This document shows, one piece after another, positions 7,165 through 62,127 of a stretch of 64,000 nucleotides of DNA. The position numbers were made by a program, and so were the translations under genes. The DNA is taken from contig CBDUSI010000002.1 in the NCBI GenBank assembly GCA_965370045.1, positions 5,207-69,206 on the forward strand, written 5' to 3'. This DNA is from an uncultured bacterium. GTDB lineage: Bacteria; Planctomycetota; SZUA-567; JAKLDR01. Numbering within the stretch: position 1 is the stretch's first letter; every line of letters starts with the position of its first letter. The notes under the pieces were generated by a model. It was not told the DNA's origin, did no database searches, and worked only from the letters and a program-made list of their open reading frames with translations.

Positions 7165-8565
7165 ATGTGGAACGTGCGGAGTTCCGCGTTCATGTCAAGC
7201 ACTAGCCCGAGGAGGTGGTCCCGCTTTGTGACTAAGTACATCTGCTGTTTGCTTCTGTCGGGCTTCTGCTCGGTCGCAGTAGCCGCTGAGAACAAGCCTC
7301 GTCTCCGCTTTGAACTTGTGGTCGAAGCGGCCCCGGAGGATTTCCGAAAACCTCGCGGCACAGCATACCACACAGCCAAGGGCGGCAGAGTCGTCTGGGT
7401 GCCAGATATGCCCCTTGCTGGGTACATCCGGGTGTTCAACCGAGGATCAGACGATTACGTTGTCCGATCTGAGACGGAGGATTTCCTCAAGAAAGTGTCG
7501 TTCGTCGGCGCTATGGTCAACAGGAAGACCATATTCTCACGTGACTTGCCGCCTGTGGTCTTCTCTTATTCCACCACCACAAAGAAGATACTTCTAACGC
7601 CTGGTGGCCCGGGCGTGCTGGTGAAGTTCCAGTTCAAGCCCGGTCCCGGTTTCGTGTGGCCCACCGGTAGGTGGGAGCCGGTCTTTCAGATCAACATTGG
7701 GGGCGGACGGAAACCTGTGCGCGTGAGTACTCGGGTTCGCCTCAAGAAGGTCGAAACGCCGGATGACCGCCTCAACGTCCATTGGTTTCACTATCAGCGA
7801 ACCTATAACGATGGCAAGTACGACACAGCCCTGCAGTCCTTGGACAAGCTTATTCGGGCGTGTCCTAACGACGCGTTCCTGAAGCACAAGCGATACCAAC
7901 TACTGTTCGCCACTGGAAGCCTCGAAGCGGCCGCGGCTAGTCTACGAGAGACAGTAGCACTTGTGGAATCAGGCAAGACTACAAGACCGCTGGTCATTCT
8001 GCGCGCCCGTTCCCAAGAAGAGAGCCTCGCCATATTGAAGAAGCAACAGAAGGGGATGGACGCACTAGCCAAACAAGGCAGCGCGCTCGATGCGGTTGGT
8101 GAAGGGGCTAACAGGAAGCAGAGAGACACCGCAGCGGCTGGCTTGAAGTCTCACTGCCCAGTCATACAGGTGAAAGCCTTGCGAGCACTGATACGCGCCT
8201 CCGCGAAGGAGACAGTGGAAAGTGTGGTCCCGTTGCTTAGCGCCTCAGATTCAGCGAACTACTACGCGCCTGACGGCTCGCTAATACTAGTTCGCCGTGA
8301 GGCATGGGACACAATATGTAAGCTGCACCCTAGATTGAAGAAGGCTGCTTACGACCCGCAAGCACATGAAGAAAGTCGAGAGAAGGCCATTGTGCGGCTG
8401 CGCGCTCTGATGCAGCCGCGACAGGACGACAAGACGAAGCCTAGTTCTGCCACCTTGCCCGTGACCATGATTGCAGCTAGTCTACTAGCAGGGCTGATAC
8501 TTGTTCTTCTCATCTTCCTGGGAATGCGCTCACGGCATCGACGACGTACCGTCAACGGTGAGTAG
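7165..8565 (+). CDS. Hypothetical exported protein with TPR/HEAT-like helices and a C-terminal membrane anchor (start uncertain)
   Basis: 466-aa ORF with a signal-like N-terminus, TPR-like YDTALQSLDKLIRACPND and a C-terminal TM plus basic tail; codon usage is less GC-biased than the flanks. Confidence 0.65.
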   Translation: MWNVRSSAFMSSTSPRRWSRFVTKYICCLLLSGFCSVAVAAENKPRLRFELVVEAAPEDFRKPRGTAYHTAKGGRVVWVPDMPLAGYIRVFNRGSDDYVVRSETEDFLKKVSFVGAMVNRKTIFSRDLPPVVFSYSTTTKKILLTPGGPGVLVKFQFKPGPGFVWPTGRWEPVFQINIGGGRKPVRVSTRVRLKKVETPDDRLNVHWFHYQRTYNDGKYDTALQSLDKLIRACPNDAFLKHKRYQLLFATGSLEAAAASLRETVALVESGKTTRPLVILRARSQEESLAILKKQQKGMDALAKQGSALDAVGEGANRKQRDTAAAGLKSHCPVIQVKALRALIRASAKETVESVVPLLSASDSANYYAPDGSLILVRREAWDTICKLHPRLKKAAYDPQAHEESREKAIVRLRALMQPRQDDKTKPSSATLPVTMIAASLLAGLILVLLIFLGMRSRHRRRTVNGE

Positions 8566-8803
8566 GGCTCAATTGTATTGCCGGCTCGGCGCGGCATGAC
8601 GGGCCTGCCCGGCGTCCAACACTCGACTCTTCCCGTTTGGCGCGACCGCTCCCGGGCCCGCCGGTTGGCCAGTGCCACTGATTATTATTTCCGCATCCGC
8701 CTCGCGCTCTAGCGCTTAAGAAAGTAATATTTCCGGTTTGAGGGAAGAATTTCTATTACTTATGAGGGGGTACTGTTGATTTGGGATTTCGGACTGCGGA
8801 TTG

Positions 8804-8899
8804 AACCGCCAAGAGGCCAAGAAGAGCAGGTACCGCTTTGTGTGCTTGGTGCTCTTGGTGGTAAACAGAGATCAGGTCAGCTCTTGGCGCCTTGGCGGT
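8804..8899. repeat. Imperfect palindromic short element (AACCGCCAAG...CTTGGCGGT)
   Basis: aaccgccaagaggccaag at the left end and cttggcgccttggcggt at the right end; a half copy lies at 32934-32952. Confidence 0.6.
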
Positions 8900-8915
8900 A
8901 GAGAGCCCCTTCACG

Positions 8916-9107
8916 CGCGAAGAAAAAAAACGCACAAGCGTCGTAAGCCACGGGTTATCAGGGGCGCAGGTCATGACAAAACGGGGTTGTCGCTCGGAGT
9001 GGCACCTTCAGGTGCCCGACGAGCGGCAATTCACTTTGCCAAAACCACGCCAGGAGGGCGGAACCTCGACGGTTCGCCACGGAGGGCGAAAGACATCGTT
9101 TGGTGGG
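8916..9107 (+). ncRNA. Structured repeat element, copy 1 (candidate ncRNA or non-autonomous element)
   Basis: Near-identical to 9181-9396 and to the reverse complement of 31902-32088; hairpins ttgtcgctc/gagcggcaa, ggcacc-ttca-ggtgcc and ttcgcc/ggcgaa. Confidence 0.6.
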
Positions 9108-9164
9108 CCCACGCAGAGCGAAAGACTATCGAAAGCAGAGCGCTTTGGCGTGAGAGAGGAGGAG

Positions 9165-9396
9165 CACGAAAAAGACGCGCAAGCGTCGTAAGTCACGAGC
9201 TTCCAGGGGCGCAGGTCATGACAAAACGGAGGCTGACCGATTCACAGAGGACACAGAGGACACAGAGGGAGGGCGTTGTCGCTCGGAGCGGCACCTTCAG
9301 GTGCCCGACGAGCGGCAATTCACTTCGTCAAAACCACGCCAGGAGGGCGGAACCCCGACGATTCGCCACGGAGGGCGAAAGACATCGTTTGGTGGG
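9165..9396 (+). ncRNA. Structured repeat element, copy 2 (with a ~44-nt cacagagga-repeat insertion)
   Basis: Tandem copy 245 nt after copy 1; the same stems are conserved. Confidence 0.6.
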
Positions 9397-9435
9397 GCGA
9401 CGCACAACGGAAGACGTGAGACGGGAGGGCTCATA

Positions 9436-9492
9436 GAAAAACGGCGAAGCGTCGTAAGTCCTTAGCGTTCAGGAGCGCAGCTCTTGCCAGAA
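9436..9492 (+). repeat. Truncated, degenerate third tandem copy of the element, overlapping the lnt stop
   Basis: aagcgtcgtaagtcc...ttcaggagcgcagctcttgccagaa aligns with the 5' part of the element. Confidence 0.5.
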
Positions 9493-11063
9493 TCGCGAGA
9501 CGGGCGCCTCAGGGTGCGGACAATCCCCACAATCGCACCCAGCACGGCCAGGCCGGCGCATATCCACGCGAAGAGGTCGCCGATGGTCATGTATAGCGTC
9601 CGGCGCGCGGGGGGAACGCGCAAGTCCATGCGCACCAAGCCTTTCTGCCACAGGCCGCCGTGCTCGGGAACGGTGATCCGACCGCCGGAGTCTATCCACG
9701 CGGAGACGCCGGTGTTGGTGGCCCGTACCAGCGGCCGGCGTGTCTCCACCGCGCGGAAGGCGGCCAGGGCCAGGTGCTGATGGGCCTGGGAGCTCTGCCT
9801 GAACCATGAGTCGTTGGTCAGGTTGACCAGCAGGCGCGCTCCGCGCCTGGCGTCGCTGCGGGTAATATATGGAAAGGCGTCCTCGTAGCAGATGTTGACC
9901 CCCAGCGGCGCGCCGGCCATCCGGGGCAGCGGCTGCTCCCGTCCGCCCGGAGTGAAGGTGGTGCCTATGAGGTGAAAGATCGCGTCCGCCCCCGGGAAGC
10001 GCCCGCCCAGCGGGACATATTCGCCGAAAGGCACCAGGTGGCGCTTGTCGTAACGGCCGGCCAGCTTGCCGTCGGGAGAGATCAGCACCGCCGAGTTCCA
10101 GTTGCGCCCGGTGCGGTTCCCGGACTCGTTGGTCTCGTGGACCACGCCGCCGGCCAGGAGCCAGCATTGCTTCTCTTTCGCAAGAGAAGCCAGCAGCCCC
10201 TCCGCGCGGTCGAGCAGCTCGCCGGGCACCATGGTCTCCGACCAGACTACGAGGTCCACCTCGCCGGGGGACAACTCGTTCATCAGCCGCTTCTGCTCGC
10301 GGATCTGGTCCTCGGCCGAGACCTTCTTGGGCCCCACCTTGAAGGCCACCAGCGGCTGGACGGCGGCGATTCGCATTCGCAGCGCGTTCGGTTCCCGAAG
10401 CTGGCGGTTGCGGATCAGGCCGTAGGCCGGTCCCGCCCCGAGGACCAGGACGACGACGAGAACTCTGACCGCGAGCCGCCTGGGACTGCGACCCGCCGCC
10501 AGCGCGGCGGCCAGCACGGTCAGAAAAGACACACCGTAGACCCCGGCGAGGTCGGCGGGGCCCATCGCCGCGGGGACTCCCGCCCAGACGGTCCCGGCCA
10601 GCATCCAGGGGAAGCCGGTGAAGAGGTGCGCGCGCCCGAACTCCAGCGCGACCCACAGCGCGGCCAACATGAGGGGCCAGGCGCGGGTCCCCGCCGCGCG
10701 CCTCTGGAGCGCGGCGCCCAGCCCGAAGACCGCTCCGAAGCACGCGAAGTATATAGCCAGTCCCAGGCAACCGGCGAAGCTCACCGTGCTCATCCAGAAG
10801 AGGCCCACCGCGGCGGACAGCGCGAAGCCGGCCGCGCCCAGCACTGTGCTCCTGCGCAGCGAGGCGCCGCGCAGGCTCCAGACGACCAGCGCCAGTCCCA
10901 CCAGCGCCAGCGGAGCGGAGACCGGCCAGAGCCAGGGCCGCAGCGTGAAGTTGAAGGCCGCGCCGTAAAGCAGCGACCCGGATACCAGCGCCACCCAGCG
11001 CTCCCGGGCGCATTGCGGAGGGCGCGGCTTGCTGCGCGATAACCTGTCAGTCTGGTCAGTCAC
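9462..11063 (-). CDS. lnt: Apolipoprotein N-acyltransferase
   Basis: Multi-TM N-terminus with LFTGFPW; nitrilase triad WSET, YDKRHLVPFGEY, ICYED; NDSWF and RATNTGVS. Confidence 0.95.
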   Translation of the reverse strand: MTDQTDRLSRSKPRPPQCARERWVALVSGSLLYGAAFNFTLRPWLWPVSAPLALVGLALVVWSLRGASLRRSTVLGAAGFALSAAVGLFWMSTVSFAGCLGLAIYFACFGAVFGLGAALQRRAAGTRAWPLMLAALWVALEFGRAHLFTGFPWMLAGTVWAGVPAAMGPADLAGVYGVSFLTVLAAALAAGRSPRRLAVRVLVVVLVLGAGPAYGLIRNRQLREPNALRMRIAAVQPLVAFKVGPKKVSAEDQIREQKRLMNELSPGEVDLVVWSETMVPGELLDRAEGLLASLAKEKQCWLLAGGVVHETNESGNRTGRNWNSAVLISPDGKLAGRYDKRHLVPFGEYVPLGGRFPGADAIFHLIGTTFTPGGREQPLPRMAGAPLGVNICYEDAFPYITRSDARRGARLLVNLTNDSWFRQSSQAHQHLALAAFRAVETRRPLVRATNTGVSAWIDSGGRITVPEHGGLWQKGLVRMDLRVPPARRTLYMTIGDLFAWICAGLAVLGAIVGIVRTLRRPSRDSGKSCAPER

Positions 11064-16765: not shown

Positions 16766-16847
16766 AGCTCGCGCCAGTCTAATGGTTCCCCGTGGGGATG
16801 CAAGAAGAACGTCGAGAAGGTGCTTCGGCCGGCGCGGTCAAAACCCG

Positions 16848-16875
16848 TTGACTGCCGCCCAGCGGACCGTATAAT
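16848..16875 (+). promoter_or_regulatory. Putative sigma70 promoter of the aspC operon
   Basis: TTGACT-N16-TATAAT. Confidence 0.65.
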
Positions 16876-16943
16876 TCCTGTCGACTCCTGGGGCTGCGCG
16901 CGGCGCGGCCCCGCAGTTTGTTGACGGGAACGAGGGAGAAGGA

Positions 16944-18146
16944 ATGCCCAAGCTCGCAGAGCGCATCGGACGGATCGGGGAATCGGTAACCCTGGCGGTC
17001 GCCGCCAAGGCCAAGGCCATGAAGGCCGAGGGCGTCGACGTGGTCGCTTTCGCGGCCGGCGAGCCGGACTTCGACACCCCCGAGTACGTGCGCGAGGCAG
17101 GCAAGGCCGCCATCGACGCGGGCCAGACTCGCTACACCCCGGCGTCGGGAACTCCCGCGCTCAAGAAGGCCATCGCCGACAAGCTCAAGCGCGACAACGG
17201 CCTGGAGTACGACCCGGCCAAGGAGATTCTGGTCTCCTGCGGGGCCAAGCACGCCATCTACAACCTGGTTCAGGCGCTCTGCGAAGAGGGCGACGAGGTG
17301 GTGATCCCCGCGCCCTACTGGGTCAGCTACCCGGAGATGGCCAGCCTGGCCGGGGCGGAGCCGGTGTTCCCGGCGGCGACGAGCCAGCAGGAGTTCAAGC
17401 TGACCCCCGAGCAGCTGGCCGGAGCGATCACCGCGAAGACCAAGGCGGTCATCCTCAACAGCCCCTCGAACCCCACCGGCGCGGTCTACTCGCTGGCGGA
17501 GCTGAAGGCGCTGGCCGCGGTGCTTCTCGAGAAAGATATCTGGGTCATCTCGGACGAGATCTACGAGAAGCTGGTCTACGACGGCGCCGAGCACGTCTCT
17601 ATCGCCGCGGTCGAACCACGCCTGAAAGACCGCGCCCTGGTCGTCAACGGCCACTCCAAGAGCTACGCCATGACCGGCTGGCGGATCGGCTACGCGGCGG
17701 GCCCCGCGGCGGTCATCAAGGCCGCCGGCTCGCTGCAGAGCCATTCGACCAGCGGACCGGCGGCGATGTGCCAGACCGCCGCGCTGACCGCGTTGACCGA
17801 AAAGGACAGCGGCAGCACCGAGCTCGAAGCCATGCGCAAAGAGTTCCAGACCCGCCGCGACCTCATCGTCGAACGGCTGGGCGCCATCAAGGGGATAAGC
17901 TGCGTCAAGCCCCAGGGGGCTTTCTATGTATTCCCGGACGTCTCCGGCTGCTACGGGCGCAAGATCGGCGAGGTCCAGGTGGACGGCTCGCTGAGCTTCG
18001 CGCAGGCCTGCCTGGAGACCGCCCACGTGGCCCTGGTGCCCGGCGCGGCCTTCGGCGCGGACAACTGCGTGCGCATGAGCTTCGCGACCAGCGCCGAAAT
18101 CATCAACAAGGGCCTCGACCGCCTCGCCAAGCTGCTGGCCGTATAG
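16944..18146 (+). CDS. aspC: PLP-dependent aminotransferase class I/II (aspartate aminotransferase)
   Basis: GEPDFDTP, NSPSNPTG, SDEIY and SKSYAMTGWRIGY motifs. Confidence 0.92.
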   Translation: MPKLAERIGRIGESVTLAVAAKAKAMKAEGVDVVAFAAGEPDFDTPEYVREAGKAAIDAGQTRYTPASGTPALKKAIADKLKRDNGLEYDPAKEILVSCGAKHAIYNLVQALCEEGDEVVIPAPYWVSYPEMASLAGAEPVFPAATSQQEFKLTPEQLAGAITAKTKAVILNSPSNPTGAVYSLAELKALAAVLLEKDIWVISDEIYEKLVYDGAEHVSIAAVEPRLKDRALVVNGHSKSYAMTGWRIGYAAGPAAVIKAAGSLQSHSTSGPAAMCQTAALTALTEKDSGSTELEAMRKEFQTRRDLIVERLGAIKGISCVKPQGAFYVFPDVSGCYGRKIGEVQVDGSLSFAQACLETAHVALVPGAAFGADNCVRMSFATSAEIINKGLDRLAKLLAV

Positions 18147-31834: not shown

Positions 31835-31901
31835 TTGCCCTTAGACTGTAGGCTGTAGTCCGTAGGCCCTGGTTTCCTCACCTCTCCTTCAGCCTACCCT
31901 T

Positions 31902-32088
31902 CCCAAACGATCTCTTTTGACCTCGTGTCAAACCGTCGGGGTTCCGCCCTCCCTGGCGTGGTTCTGGCAAGTGAATTGCCGCTCGTCGGGCACCTGAAGG
32001 TGCCGCTCTGAGCGACAACGCCCTTTTGTCATGACCTGCGCTCCTGAAAGCCCGTGGCTTATGACGCTTCGTCGCTTTTTTCTTCGCG
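31902..32088 (-). ncRNA. Structured repeat element, gene-linked copy (overlaps the last ~10 codons and the 3' UTR of the HTH gene)
   Basis: The reverse complement aligns with 8916-9107; stem ttcgcc/ggcgaa is replaced by tttgac/gtcaaa (two compensatory pairs). Confidence 0.65.
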
Positions 32089-32685
32089 TAACCGCCTCGC
32101 TTCTAATGGGTCAATTAGCCGGCCGTCTTCGTCGGTCATCTCGTCTACGGCCGCGCGGGCCAGGGCGATGATGTCGCTGTTTCCTCCATTCCCGCCGTAC
32201 TGCTTGCTGTAGGCTTTCTGCCAGAGCGAGGGTTCGGAGTCGTCGCGCATGCGCCTCTCTACATCATGGCGGTATTCGGCCAGGGTCATTTCGGCTTCCT
32301 TGAGCTGCCGCCAGCTTTCGGCGTCCTTCTGGCGCTCTACGACTTTCTCGGCCAGGATGTCGTTGCGGTCGCGGAGGACGGCGCTGCGCTCCTTGCCGCG
32401 CTGGTCACCGAGCAAAGCCTGCGCCGCGCGCAGGGCCACGCGCTCGTTCTCGCTCTGCAACAACTCTTCGAGCTTGGCGCGGGCCATTGAGGCCGCCTCC
32501 AACGAGGCGCGGTGCTGGGCCTCCTCGAACAGCCGCCAGTAGACCGCGCCGTGCGCGCGGGTGATCTCCCGCAGCCGGGCCCGGTCTACGTCCAGCTCGC
32601 CGGCGATATCCTTCCACGACTTGCCGTGTGCGCGAAGCAAGGCGATCTCGGTCAACAGGGTGAACTCTTCTTGGGACTCATGCAT
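32059..32685 (-). CDS. Orphan HTH protein resembling terminase-small-subunit-like proteins
   Basis: N-terminal HTH (GKSWKDIAGELDVDRARL); LEELLQSENERVALRAAQALL helix; coiled coil; AAAGGAG RBS. Confidence 0.7.
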   Translation of the reverse strand: MHESQEEFTLLTEIALLRAHGKSWKDIAGELDVDRARLREITRAHGAVYWRLFEEAQHRASLEAASMARAKLEELLQSENERVALRAAQALLGDQRGKERSAVLRDRNDILAEKVVERQKDAESWRQLKEAEMTLAEYRHDVERRMRDDSEPSLWQKAYSKQYGGNGGNSDIIALARAAVDEMTDEDGRLIDPLEARRLREEKSDEAS

Positions 32686-32738
32686 GGCGCTCTCCTTTCA
32701 AATAGCCCTTCGGGCCGCAAGTGGTCAGTGTATACTCT

Positions 32739-32767
32739 ATTATAGCGCGAACACACCAGAATGTCAA
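32739..32767 (-). promoter_or_regulatory. Perfect-consensus sigma70 promoter of the HTH gene
   Basis: Minus strand TTGACA-N17-TATAAT. Confidence 0.8.
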
Positions 32768-33109
32768 GCAGAATTACCAGAAAACTGCGCCGAGCGGGCT
32801 ATGATGCGTAATAGGCTGATATATAAGGTGATACGCGAGGCAATATTGAACAGCACGTCCGGACTCCGGACTCCAGACTAAGTATCCGGAGGCTGCGTAC
32901 AGGTCGCGCCAAACGGGAAGGGGGGGGGATCGTAAACCGCCAAGATGCCAAGCGCACCAGCCGGCCGCTGACAACTGAGGTTGCCCTTGACGCCCGCGCT
33001 TGGTGGGACCATACTGAGTGGAGGAGGATCGGGCGCACTTGTGGGGGCTCCGAGGACCGGGGCGGGAAATCTAATGTTCTGTTTTCAGAATAGCGCCTCG
33101 CTGCCGGGT

Positions 33110-33234: not shown

Positions 33235-35898
33235 GTGGGCAAGCGCAATCTGTTCTGTAAGGCCGGAGATCTTCATAACGAAGCCGATGTAGAGCAGATA
33301 TTTGTCCGTCGGTTCCTTGAGCACCTAGGTTACAGCGACAAGCAGATTCGCCCGAAGGATTCGTTGACCAAGTTGACGGTAGGCGGCTTCCATCAACCTG
33401 AAGCCAAGTATCGGCCAGACTTCGCAATCAAGGTGGGACCCGAAGTAAGGTGGATTGTGGAGGCCAAGGCCCCTGACGAAAAGCTGGACAAACACGTTTG
33501 GCAGCCTCGGTCGTACTGTAACCTCCTCAATGGGCAGTACCGCAACAGAAATCCCGTAGGCTACTTCGTCCTAACGAATGGTCTCCACACGCGCCTTTAC
33601 CAAGGGGACTTCAACAAACCCGTGGCTTGCGTGACGCTTTCCGAAGTTGTGACATCGAACGCCAAGTTCAAGAAACTGAGTTCGCTTCTCGATCCGAAGG
33701 CCTTCAAGGTGGCCAAAGCAGTTCCCGCTTCAGACATGCATATCCTGCAAAAGCAGCCGTTGGAGGACGTGACCGCAGCTTTCGCTTGGTGCCATCAGGA
33801 GATATACCGAAAAGACAATATCAGTCAAGCAGCTGCTTTTACAGCATTCGTAAAAGTCGTGTTCCTGAAGCTTCTATCTGATCGCAATATCCGTGACAAG
33901 CACCCGGGCATAATTGCGGAGCAGAGCATAGAAGTGCCGGCTGACGATGTGGACTTTTCCTCACGATGGCTCCGCGCCCAGGAGAAGCATACTCCTAATC
34001 CGCTTGATTCAATCCAATTCAGGAACTTCATCAAAGCAATGGAGCAGGAGATTGCCAATAGAAAACGGAAACGCATCTTTGATCCAGACGAGATAATTGA
34101 CCTGAGCCCAGAGACCATTCGAAGCGTGGTAGCAAGAATCGAGCACCTGTATCTCTTTGGCATTGATGCAGACCTCAACGGCCGGCTATTCGAAACCTTT
34201 CTAAATGCGACCATGCGCGGCAAAGACTTAGGACAGTACTTCACACCCAGAAGTATTGTGCTATTGGGAACTCGGATAGCAAACATCCAGGTGGATGCAC
34301 CTGTTGCAGGAGGAGGATGTCATACGGACATAGTTATTGACGCGTGTTGCGGAACAGGGGGGTTCTTGATTGAGGCGTTGGCTTACATGTGGGACAAGAT
34401 CAACCTAAACCCCTCGCTAGAAAAGGGCGAGAAGCGGAAGCGCTGCAAACGCGTGGCCACTCAGCACATCTACGGCGTTGATGTCGGCCGCAAACCACCC
34501 GTGGCGAGAATCGCTCGCATGAATATGTACCTGCACGGTGATGGGGGTGGAAGCATATTCCAGACTGATGCGCTAGACAAGGAACTTCGTGACGGAAAGA
34601 CCGACGCACCAGAGCTGATAGCAGAAAGAGCGCAGCTCCGCAAACTCATTGGCCAAGGGGGGTTCGCTAACGTAGTACTTACGAACCCACCGTTCGCCAA
34701 GAAATACGAGCGAAAGACTCCAAGTGAGAGGCGCGTTCTGGACGGGTACGAGATTGCGACTTGCTCAGGGAAGAGGCTGCCAAGTCTCAAGTCCAACCTA
34801 ATGTTTGTGGAGCGCTACCACGACATCTTGGTCGTTGGTGGAAGGCTTGTGACCGTCATAGACGATGGAATCTTGAGTGGTAGAAACTACGCGCGGTTCA
34901 GGGAGTTTCTGCGCAGCAAGTACCTCGTCAAGGCTGTTGTTTCGTTGCCCGGCGATGCTTTTCAGCGCTCCAAAGCCCGCGTGAAGACATCGCTCCTGGT
35001 GTTGGAGAAGCGAGATCCCGCGAGTCAACAGGAGCAACCATCTGTCTTCATGTATGGTTGTGAGTACGTCGGCATCGATGATCCAGCCAGACAACGGTCA
35101 TTGCCAATAGATAAGGAAAACCGACGCAAGGCAGGCCTAGAAATTGATGCCGTCGCCGGGCTCTACGCGGACTTTCTGGCCGGGAACCCCGATGCATCGC
35201 ATCTCGTTTCCTCGGAGAAGATTCAGGATCGGCTGGATGTGAAGTCATGCCTTATGACGCCAGGGCGGATGGTCAGTGCTTGGAAGAACAACGGCATCAG
35301 CGTAGTAACGCTCTCTGAGCTTGCGGAGCCAGTTGAGTTCGAAGAGGACAAGATAATCGAAACGAAGAGCACCGATGACTTGGTTACATGTCTCAGGGTT
35401 ACGTACGAGGGTTTTGCTGAGAAGGGCGACGAGATATGTTCTTCTGATACTACGTATAGCCGGCTGTATCGCGTAGACCCGGGGCAGATTGTCGTCTCAA
35501 ACATCGCAGCTCATTACGGTAGTACCGCCATCGTCCCGCAAGAAATGGAGGGTTGCGTCGTAAGCTCGGAGTGCACGGTACTCCGCCCCAGACCCGGTGT
35601 GGATGTTCGCGTTCTTTGGCTCCTGCTCAGGTCACCAGAGGCCAGAGCGGATATGCTCCTTCGGGCTACGGGCGCTAATCGCACCAGAGTTAGCTGGGAC
35701 ACGCTCAAGGGCCTCCAACTTCCGCGCCCGCCGCAGAGCTTGGTAAAGCAAGTTGCCACAGCAGTTGATGAAGCAGAAGAGGCCCAGCAGGTTGCGACAA
35801 AGCGTCTCCGTGAAGGCCGGGAGATGCTGGAAGGCAAGCTACAACTGGATGGTAGCGAAGCGCAGTCCATCTTGCGGGCTTTCAAGCCGCCGAAGTAG
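33235..35898 (+). CDS. Type IIG-like restriction-modification protein (PD-(D/E)XK nuclease + N6-adenine methyltransferase + TRD)
   Basis: NEADVE...RPDF...VEAK nuclease; LGQYFTPR, DACCGTGGFL and NPPF methyltransferase motifs; C-terminal specificity-domain-like region; visibly lower GC. Confidence 0.88.
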   Translation: MGKRNLFCKAGDLHNEADVEQIFVRRFLEHLGYSDKQIRPKDSLTKLTVGGFHQPEAKYRPDFAIKVGPEVRWIVEAKAPDEKLDKHVWQPRSYCNLLNGQYRNRNPVGYFVLTNGLHTRLYQGDFNKPVACVTLSEVVTSNAKFKKLSSLLDPKAFKVAKAVPASDMHILQKQPLEDVTAAFAWCHQEIYRKDNISQAAAFTAFVKVVFLKLLSDRNIRDKHPGIIAEQSIEVPADDVDFSSRWLRAQEKHTPNPLDSIQFRNFIKAMEQEIANRKRKRIFDPDEIIDLSPETIRSVVARIEHLYLFGIDADLNGRLFETFLNATMRGKDLGQYFTPRSIVLLGTRIANIQVDAPVAGGGCHTDIVIDACCGTGGFLIEALAYMWDKINLNPSLEKGEKRKRCKRVATQHIYGVDVGRKPPVARIARMNMYLHGDGGGSIFQTDALDKELRDGKTDAPELIAERAQLRKLIGQGGFANVVLTNPPFAKKYERKTPSERRVLDGYEIATCSGKRLPSLKSNLMFVERYHDILVVGGRLVTVIDDGILSGRNYARFREFLRSKYLVKAVVSLPGDAFQRSKARVKTSLLVLEKRDPASQQEQPSVFMYGCEYVGIDDPARQRSLPIDKENRRKAGLEIDAVAGLYADFLAGNPDASHLVSSEKIQDRLDVKSCLMTPGRMVSAWKNNGISVVTLSELAEPVEFEEDKIIETKSTDDLVTCLRVTYEGFAEKGDEICSSDTTYSRLYRVDPGQIVVSNIAAHYGSTAIVPQEMEGCVVSSECTVLRPRPGVDVRVLWLLLRSPEARADMLLRATGANRTRVSWDTLKGLQLPRPPQSLVKQVATAVDEAEEAQQVATKRLREGREMLEGKLQLDGSEAQSILRAFKPPK

Positions 35899-61455: not shown

Positions 61456-62127
61456 ATGGCGCGCATTGCCAGGGTAGTGGTTCCGGGGCATCCGCATCAC
61501 GTGACGCAGCGCGGGGTGCGTTCGATGGCGGTCTTCGCCGGCGACGGCGACCGCGAGTTGTATCTGCGGCTGATGGCCAAGCAGTGCGCGCGTTTCCGGG
61601 TCGAGGTGCTGGCCTGGTGCCTGATGACTAACCACGTACACCTGGTGATGGTCCCGGAGCGCGAGGAGGGGCTGGCCGCGGCGGTGGGCGAGGCGCACAG
61701 GCGCTACACCCGGACCAGGAACTTCGCCGAGGGGGTCAGGGGCTATCTCTTTCAGGGGAGGTTCGGTTCGTGCGTGCTGGACGAGCGGCGCCTGCTGGCG
61801 GCGGCGCGCTATGCGGAGACGAACCCGGTGCGCGCCGGGATGGTGGTTCACCCGGGGGATCACAAGTGGAGCAGCGCGCGCTTTCACCTGGGGCGGCGCA
61901 AGAGAGACGCGCTGGTCGCCGACCGCACGCTGCGGGGGCTGGTGGGCGACTGGGGGGAGTTCCTCGGCGCGGATGACGGCGAGGCGGAAGAGTCCTTGCG
62001 GCGCGCGACGCGGACGGGCAGGCCGGCGGGGGACCGGCGCTTCCTGGTCCGCGTTGAGAGGTTGACCGGGCGTGAGCTCCGGCGTCGGAAACCCGGCCCG
62101 CGGCCGAAGGGGAGAAGCGGGTCCTGA
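61456..62127 (+). mobile_element. Y1/HUH transposase, REP-associated tyrosine transposase (RAYT)-like
   Basis: PHHVTQRG, WCLMTNHVHL (HUH), G.LFQGRF, Y...NPVRAG and WSSA motifs. Confidence 0.88.

Follow-up and report, generated by a model that had tools for sequence, protein, structure and literature searches.

Between positions 8916 and 9492 of a 64,000-nt stretch of DNA from an uncultured planctomycete (contig CBDUSI010000002.1 of assembly GCA_965370045.1; this whole stretch is referred to as the window) lies a tandem array of structured units without a recognizable gene, and the question that it raises is what such an array represents and from what it was built. The array is probably a gene-less copy of a modular cassette, that is, a mosaic repeat of the BOX/BIME/RPE kind that was produced by local tandem duplication and whose action, if it has one, is on RNA in cis. 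The normal cassette would consist of a leader (module U or another), a small helix–turn–helix (HTH) gene of a family here called D after its domain, and a tail formed by modules A and B. At this locus the coding part would have been lost, and a unit of approximately 245–290 nt comprising a linker, A and B would have been duplicated in tandem on the spot. The genome containing the window is a metagenome-assembled genome (MAG) of 4.46 Mb in 210 contigs that is 88% complete; its contigs are given C-numbers.

The modules of the array are arranged in the order A-B-L-A-B-L-A, with A being about 69 nt and B about 126 nt long and L denoting a linker. Alignment of the units extends this to A1-B1-L1-A2-(44-nt insert with a 9-nt tandem)-B2-L2-A3. 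The sequence used as an anchor in an earlier note on this DNA, AAGCGTCGTAAG, is present as described, with exact plus-strand copies at 8936, 9181 and 9447 (periods 245 and 266), and a copy with one mismatch is found on the minus strand at 32058–32069. Only 0.15 matches are expected by chance, and four were reached in 0 of 100 shuffles. A repeat search recovers a 144-nt pair (8983–9126 and 9272–9415, 92% identity) and a 78-nt triple starting at 8904, 9149 and 9415, with the same spacings of 245 and 266. The description of two full units and a truncated third is also correct, the third consisting of module A alone. The 21-nt difference between the periods results from two indels, 44 extra nucleotides between A and B in unit 2 and 23 extra nucleotides in linker 1. 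Tandem Repeats Finder (TRF) picks up the 9-nt tandem only and misses the long units.

All modules lie on the plus strand. A1 (8916–8984) starts with what appears to be the end of a gene, described below, and continues into a tail containing an invariant palindrome, GTCATGAC. A2 (9161–9229) is 89% identical to A1, and A3 (9427–9492), which makes up the whole of the third unit, shares 71% identity with the A2 region and overlaps the 3′ end of the lnt gene on the other strand. B1 (8982–9108; C2:14188–14314) and B2 (9271–9397) score 135.9 and 136.2 bits, respectively, against the covariance model for B. The linkers L1 (9109–9160) and L2 (9398–9426) are a long and a short variant of one module, the shorter containing a small hairpin with a GGGAGGG loop. 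The insert (9230–9270) carries 2.9 copies of the 9-nt tandem CACAGAGGA at 9243–9268 (TRF), a motif that recurs before B copies or inside D-family open reading frames (ORFs) on at least 10 other contigs in both orientations. The wider locus (8629–9492) is, judged by its module matches, U-C-A-B-L-A-B-L-A and abuts the 3′ end of the convergent lnt. Module U (8629–8803) is an AT-rich, promoter-like leader with a short GATTTSGGA-type repeat at 8754–8803. Module C (8805–8899) is a CCAAG-type hairpin whose 18-nt arms (8805–8822 and 8882–8899) form an inverted repeat that is 89% complementary; the arm sequence is also found on at least 10 contigs.

The absence of a credible ORF, as previously claimed, is upheld. 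In the sole long ORF (8801–9436), which lacks a Pfam match, the frame of B1 differs from that of B2, and a coding reading of the array was rejected on this account. No Rfam 15 family matches anywhere in the window at gathering thresholds, and the region 8560–9560 gives just two matches (E = 0.9 and 2.9), both far below threshold.

The ancestry of the array is revealed by module A. In five paralogous ORFs of approximately 208 aa, A starts 29 nt (four intact genes) or 37 nt (one) before the stop codon, and therefore each A of the array opens with what remains of the final ten codons and TAA stop of a gene of this type, referred to as p208. A as a whole corresponds to the last 10 codons and stop of this HTH gene followed by a 40-nt tail. 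These alignments identify the anchor as the region around a paralogue's stop codon. An intact p208 gene of the HTH (D-domain) family lies within the window at 32059–32685 (−), the last 29 nt of which are the start of a module A. Its A-B tail (31898–32088, −; A 32021–32088, B 31898–32023) ends 69 nt from the stop of the convergent ftsK. The array had been proposed to be a stand-alone version of an element at 31.9–32.1 kb, and this relationship holds, as the copy there is an A-B pair on the minus strand with 88% identity over 188 nt.

Upstream of this p208 gene, at 32733–32843, is a further repeat family shared with C48, C60, C6, C37, C68 and C132. It is unlike module U, and leaders of at least two kinds are therefore found among the cassettes. 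Beside the p208 cassette and divergent from it is a restriction–modification-type gene (33235–35898, +) with a low GC content at third codon positions (GC3, 0.61); its product is an 887-aa N6 DNA methyltransferase to which a type I specificity-like C-terminus is fused.

The D family is large, an iterated profile giving 71 six-frame ORF pieces that account for 1.25% of the assembly, and many members have two copies of the domain D (approximately 110–150 aa). The p208 protein itself has no Pfam, NCBIfam or PADLOC match, and the PHROG small terminase (TerS) family matches it weakly (E = 0.01). Its AlphaFold model (pLDDT 71) has an N-terminal HTH followed by long helices, and the best Foldseek match to this model is the phage protein 2ao9, with an E-value of only 0.8. 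Among 5.8 billion proteins, relatives fall into just 43 and 13 clusters, and no cluster has a Pfam domain. A hidden Markov model search of 1.84 billion representatives finds 136 proteins at E ≤ 0.001, only 2 of which reach 1e-10. When the query and 79 of these distant proteins were scanned, making 80 in total, 17 matched HTH_23, 4 matched TerS PHROGs and 1 matched Terminase_5, and neighbours of p208 in the Atlas are HTH_23/HTH_Tnp_1_2/Terminase_5 clusters with scores of 0.92–0.94. By the predicted fold and these distant matches p208 is an HTH protein, and it is possibly TerS-like. A close homologue from another data set, P0047 (74% identity), contains an insert of 39 residues resembling a translation of B, at a site where paralogues have a short Gly-rich stretch and no B-like insert.

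Module B contains the fold. RNAalifold, applied to 35 copies, gives a long hairpin (P1) with a 2×2 G-A/G-A internal loop, a closing stem (P0) and hairpins P2 and P4; a helix P3 is possible. On the evidence of this fold and its covariation, B is a five-helix, 126-nt RNA-type structure, and the conserved multi-hairpin core that had been proposed earlier is confirmed. The P2 hairpin is invariant, with a loop containing GGA in 35/35 copies. One P4 pair alternates between C-G (17 copies) and A-U (17 copies), and the loop of P4 usually carries GGA, with CGA instead in 5/35. Over 53 copies (51 distinct, from two species), 96.2% of 1551 pair cells are paired, a value that the fitting of this alignment to a covariance model favours somewhat, and 19 of the 31 pairs show compensatory two-sided changes. 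The observed values were reached by 0 of 500 shuffled controls. Sliding the partners by 1–3 columns lowers pairing to 37–53%, and in an independent MAFFT alignment 15 of the 31 pairs are compensated. Altogether 35 columns are invariant, mostly in loops and junctions, and the P1 stems are wholly replaced by compensating pairs. Since P1 is confined to the 5′ 45 nt of the module, the ends of B are not complementary to one another.

The strand of this fold can also be assigned. G·U cells number 119 against 18 A·C cells, and the fold therefore belongs to the sense strand, which in the window is the plus strand. Folding of the array against shuffles gives z = −4.4 for the plus strand and −2.65 for the minus strand.

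Copies of these modules are dispersed throughout the genome. Using blastn and a covariance model built in this analysis, 22 copies of A and 37 of B are found at 40 loci, with architectures ABAB(A), BABA, AABA, ABA, AAB, AA, AB, B alone and A alone. The orientation of A and B is identical wherever they are adjacent, and all copies are head-to-tail. The congener, another species of the genus, has 16 copies of B, and the two genomes examined from a sister genus have none. Within the class B is present in 2 of 62 genomes, namely these two species, and absent from the other 60; blastn gives the same distribution (2 of 41 genomes), and a p208-type profile has no match in those 60 either. A pattern scan of 185,579 species genomes returned 48 loci, of which 7 are true B copies, all in one Planctomycetia MAG, one is weak (20.7 bits) and forty are nothing. 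Metagenome contigs (72 pattern loci) and viral contigs (1 locus) contain no true copy; their 4 weak matches of 21–23 bits are read as products of the seed pattern. Across these surveys the cassette is specific to one uncultured planctomycete genus. In a public marine metagenome run, many short contigs carry these modules at 85–99% identity and in other orders, for instance with U joined directly to B, and relatives with reshuffled cassettes therefore exist in that sample.

Comparison with other arrays of this genome shows how the locus was put together. Module U lies directly upstream of six further gene-less A/B arrays, on C31, C61, C45, C15, C197 and C83, and it also precedes an intact p208-type gene on C43, all with 73–81% identity. 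As U and C are present here and the coding part is missing, the locus is the scaffolding of a cassette without its gene. B1 and B2 are 93.7% identical to one another and at most 87.5% identical to any other of the 53 aligned copies; being mutual nearest relatives, they arose by a local doubling. L1 and L2 belong to a module common to the arrays on C31, C45, C61, C66 and C15: L1 aligns with L2 and with the linkers of C15, C45 and C66, and L2 is 87–90% identical over 30 nt to those of C66 and C45. Of the two earlier suggestions for the linkers, decayed duplicated sequence is the one that holds, in the form of diverged copies of one module. A convergent gene faces all 7 evaluable arrays, including this one, at a distance of 18–84 nt in six of them; these orientations come from a crude, GC3-based gene caller.

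At the locus orthologous to that of the C45 array, the congener has a gene of the form D1-B-D2 (B between two D domains) beside the same flank. The earlier note had recommended a comparison with relatives to look for an empty site. The 7.1–9.5 kb interval, from a kinase gene to lnt, differs throughout between the two species of the genus. No clean empty site for the array was obtained from the congener, in which synteny breaks just past ftsK and the kinase gene and the contig containing lnt ends 212 nt beyond that gene.

The position of B relative to genes and promoters is not random in orientation. A D-family ORF lies within 700 nt of 26 B copies, and in every one of these the two have the same orientation, with no opposite case. 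Stop-codon avoidance was considered as the cause of this bias and is unsupported, as stops are not notably rarer on the sense strand (mean 1.5 per copy, against 2.2 antisense). On C13 and C50 a promoter scan finds sigma-70 promoters that match the consensus at 12 of 12 positions and end 2–3 nt before P1; alignment shows the same abutment of promoter and B on C164 and a TACAAT variant on C100. These promoter-proximal copies stand approximately 20–60 nt before the start codon. Other copies are read through. B is in frame and free of stops between D1 and D2 on C34, C141 and C3, and in frame after D2 with the ORF continuing on C130, C15, C29, C80 and C30, so that 8 of 37 copies are in frame, all in D-family ORFs. 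In the p208 type B follows the stop codon of the gene. In other paralogues the CCAAG-type hairpin of module C replaces B between the same flanking codons and is read in frame as an interdomain linker. Finally, three solitary copies, and one in the congener, lie between ordinary genes in sense orientation. In the congener (C305:1501–2493) a B copy is situated between the stop codon of an upstream gene and the ribosome-binding site of a carbon–nitrogen hydrolase gene, as the leader of the latter. At the counterpart in the window genome (C1:23409–23438) B and most of the hydrolase gene are deleted, with the last ~50 nt left. The two loci were rejected as a filled and empty pair, because the deletion removes B together with most of the gene.

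It is possible, although this is put forward tentatively, that B acts on RNA in cis and in sense orientation, because it is oriented with its genes, has the G·U bias and is abutted by promoters. B would then be a folded module co-transcribed with whatever contains it, forming a terminal stem-loop when at the 5′ end of a transcript and a structured block when within or after genes. The loops of P2, and usually of P4, would display GGA or GGAGG (Shine–Dalgarno-like) to a binding partner, and B may thereby alter the stability or translation of the transcript. In the arrays the reverse complement of each A, a hairpin followed by a T-run, might act as a terminator for the convergent gene. A terminator scan flags the antisense sites in A1 (8929–8942, −) and A2 (9174–9187, −), which are the reverse complements of the starts of these modules. 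The third site, in A3, follows the lnt stop codon (9462–9464) by 6 nt on the minus strand and consists of the A hairpin (9455–9441) and a run of five T. Transcription from U, the effect on RNA and the terminator role are all inferred from sequence.

Several observations count against this interpretation. Among listed RNA runs none contains this DNA, so that transcription itself is inferred; a simple scan finds no sigma-70-type promoter in U, and the terminator scan sees no terminator at the sense-strand end of the array. A start approximately 7 nt downstream of the consensus promoters would hit the basal pairs of P1. B is limited to one genus, so that its conserved loops could reflect recent spread instead of function, and covariation would also be expected if spread required a hairpin of single-stranded DNA. 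The antisense A hairpins have stems of no more than 5–6 bp, and gene orientation was taken from a GC3-based caller that missed some genes.

Among the closest described parallels to such a cassette is BOX of S. pneumoniae and S. suis, which has the form boxA-boxB(n)-boxC. According to the relevant passages of PMC3049150, its modules vary between loci in number and order, it has a predicted RNA fold, and it is transcribed as part of untranslated regions, extending operons at the 5′ or 3′ side; it is over-represented between convergent genes and can form or enter ORFs. The same source gives, for BOX, ERIC, Correia and BIME elements, generic roles as structured blocks that alter transcript stability, processing or termination (PMC3049150). 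By analogy, structured blocks affecting these three processes would be the most economical reading of the present modules. The likeness is one of kind only: in both, separate modules vary in number and order, copies are many and dispersed, and folding as RNA is predicted. There is no likeness of sequence or structure to BOX; in place of a simple stem-loop B is a multi-helix module of 126 nt with invariant loops, the modules here go with a single expanded gene family, A being itself a piece of such a gene, and BOX is known to be transcribed whereas transcription of the present modules is predicted.

A different explanation is that A, B, C and L are selfish DNA, parasitic palindromic repeats comparable to Rickettsia palindromic elements (RPEs) or MITEs that spread by recombination or some other DNA-level mechanism and have no role as RNA, the array being junk left by unequal crossing-over. 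This explanation is unlikely. In its favour, the elements are limited to one genus, orthologous loci of the two species carry different cassettes, and such modules are found within 300 nt of 33 of the 420 contig ends. As interdomain linkers B and the C hairpin are interchangeable, P0047 has a B-like insert that its paralogues do not, and B is found in frame in stop-free ORFs with D domains. This last property recalls RPEs, which, as part of the literature on them describes, are approximately 100–150 nt long, fuse in frame with host ORFs inside unrelated metabolic genes and are read as peptide inserts (PMC10969869). The in-frame B copies and the C hairpins share this behaviour; they differ in that all in-frame copies are in one gene family, as linkers or tails, that B is not palindromic over its full length, and that leaders, tails and gene-less arrays also contain many copies of B.

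Mosaic intergenic arrays of structured repeats also bring to mind BIMEs. Those of enterobacteria and pseudomonads are described, in sections of PMC2817692 and PMC3733652, as mosaic intergenic arrays of REPs at gene 3′ ends with proposed roles in termination and mRNA stability, the REPs being palindromes of 20–40 bp, often tagged GTAG/CGTC and arranged as inverted dimers, alternating in orientation and linked to RAYT transposases, whose genes they flank. The units here are 69–126 nt long and all head-to-tail. The sole Y1 transposase gene of the assembly, an IS200-like gene in the window (61456–62127, +; Pfam Y1_Tnp, 28.9 bits), has flanks without A, B, C or U, and a tie to this gene was rejected. 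B has no terminal inverted repeats, one of the marks of MITEs, and among the congener loci compared no clean filled and empty pair that would show a target-site duplication, the other mark, was found. The strictly sense orientation to neighbouring genes, which stop-codon avoidance does not explain, the excess of G·U over A·C, and the invariant loops and junctions beside stems renewed by compensating pairs also argue against spread of DNA alone.

Should B act as RNA, a possible partner is suggested by its loops. B may be a site for CsrA, an RNA-binding protein, with the U-led A/B arrays serving as CsrB/RsmZ-like decoys that titrate CsrA away from D-family and flagellin mRNAs; this appears improbable as it stands. 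The plus strand of the array is rich in purines and contains 8 GGAGG and 17 GGA, and the minus strand 0 and 2; the GGAGG motifs are situated in the loops of P2, P4 and the small L hairpin. Against a genome background of 1.1 GGAGG per 577 nt, a count of 8 is reached in a fraction of 0.00065 of random windows. CsrA binds GGA in hairpin loops, as parts of PMC4894983 and PMC13443453 describe, and GGA is invariant in the loop of P2 and usual in that of P4, with an additional GGGAGGG loop in L. csrA and fliW are adjacent in this genome (C19:29410–29980). Three flagellin leaders (C97:~1224–1480, C137:~10729–10880 and C31:~16790–17048) have GGA hairpin loops and Shine–Dalgarno regions of type CAGGGAGGA that resemble the loops of B, a predicted layout that is the one expected for CsrA control.

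Set against these similarities to CsrB/RsmZ, which are multiple GGA-bearing hairpin loops and a genome that encodes CsrA, are a number of differences. There is no homology to those RNAs, and Shine–Dalgarno-like purine runs inherently resemble CsrA sites, making them weak evidence. GGA alone is not significantly enriched (fraction 0.075), and the P4 loop has CGA in place of GGA in a minority of copies. Most B copies are inside mRNAs, and some in ORFs, instead of in stand-alone RNAs; the array has no sense-strand terminator of its own in the scan, and binding of CsrA to B is only proposed. The CsrA of this genome is FliW-partnered, and the known CsrA antagonist in FliW-type systems is the protein FliW; according to PMC4894983, the organism studied there lacks antagonising small RNAs. 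Slightly more doubtful still is the extended form of the proposal, in which B would be a dedicated protein-binding RNA module with CsrA as the best candidate partner and the seven U-led arrays would be decoy RNAs tuning CsrA toward approximately 70 B-linked HTH genes and the flagellin mRNAs.

The mosaic-repeat reading presupposes that the array is real. An artefact, either a chimeric join or a wrong number of repeats, is very improbable, even though the assembly is a MAG in 210 contigs, repeats break it at many contig ends, and the four public DNA runs examined yield short contigs of which none spans the whole array. Collapse or expansion of repeats is unlikely, judged from the sequence of the units, since the two differ by 6–11% in addition to two indels and can be distinguished in assembly. 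Seven arrays of the same architecture are present on different contigs. As to an artefact that read mapping would show, a possibility raised in the earlier note, a 220-nt contig from an independent public run matches 9298–9500 with 4 differences, although no run spans the array.

CRISPR direct repeats are approximately 23–50 nt long and are separated by unique spacers of similar length. The exclusion of CRISPR made beforehand stands, with units of 245–266 nt here and intervening segments that are homologous to each other and to those of other arrays, without a spacer-type match to phages or plasmids. The related idea of an RNA-guided nuclease, transposase or recombinase, for which the units would serve as scaffolds and the linkers as guides, is hardly credible: structured, repeated units with more variable linkers and the methyltransferase gene beside the p208 cassette would suit it, but the linkers align with one another and with those of other arrays and have no other match in the genome, none (nor has the array) among 50,697 phage records and, in 72,556 plasmid records, a sole match of 27 nt to the simple 9-nt tandem, and the 88%-complete assembly has no match to PF07282 (TnpB-type), PF01548 (IS110-type) or PF00078 (reverse transcriptase), the window none to Rfam, and the small HTH protein, in which no catalytic domain is recognizable, is the sole protein associated with the units. 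The linkers are thus not guide-like, as had been suggested. Arrays of integron attC sites or of type III toxin–antitoxin RNAs were also considered; both are made less likely by the unit length of 245 nt and by the dispersal next to housekeeping genes, with no search made for integrase or ToxN-type genes.

Taken as a mosaic repeat, B is an undescribed structure of the modular interspersed-repeat kind, and its fold has stronger support than that of most such repeats. A literature search found nothing fitting such repeats, or multicopy structured RNAs, in Planctomycetes, which is not proof that none is in print. B is unusually bound to one expanding gene family, and occurs at the 5′ ends of predicted transcripts behind textbook promoters, between protein domains in frame, in gene tails and in gene-less arrays. 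This makes a compact case for the co-amplification of structured repeats and a gene family, in which parasites may be compared with recruited post-transcriptional control. Mosaic repeats would be tied to a global regulator should CsrA or the ribosome bind the loops, and if the decoy reading were true the arrays would be the first RNA antagonists of FliW-type CsrA, derived from a mobile, self-amplifying module. For annotation, the modules account for many assembly breaks and over-long ORF calls in this lineage.

The genes on either side of the array were also examined. The right-hand neighbour is convergent, as previously noted, and is lnt-like (9462–11063, −), encoding an apolipoprotein N-acyltransferase-like protein with Pfam matches to CN_hydrolase (7.4e-31) and LNT_N (1.1e-18). 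The left-hand neighbour is a low-GC orphan, an ORF of 466 aa (7165–8565, +) that occurs once in the genome and matches nothing in Pfam, PHROG, NCBIfam or PADLOC; in the congener, too, no match was found. The GC content of this stretch is 0.50–0.60, compared with 0.67 for the window.

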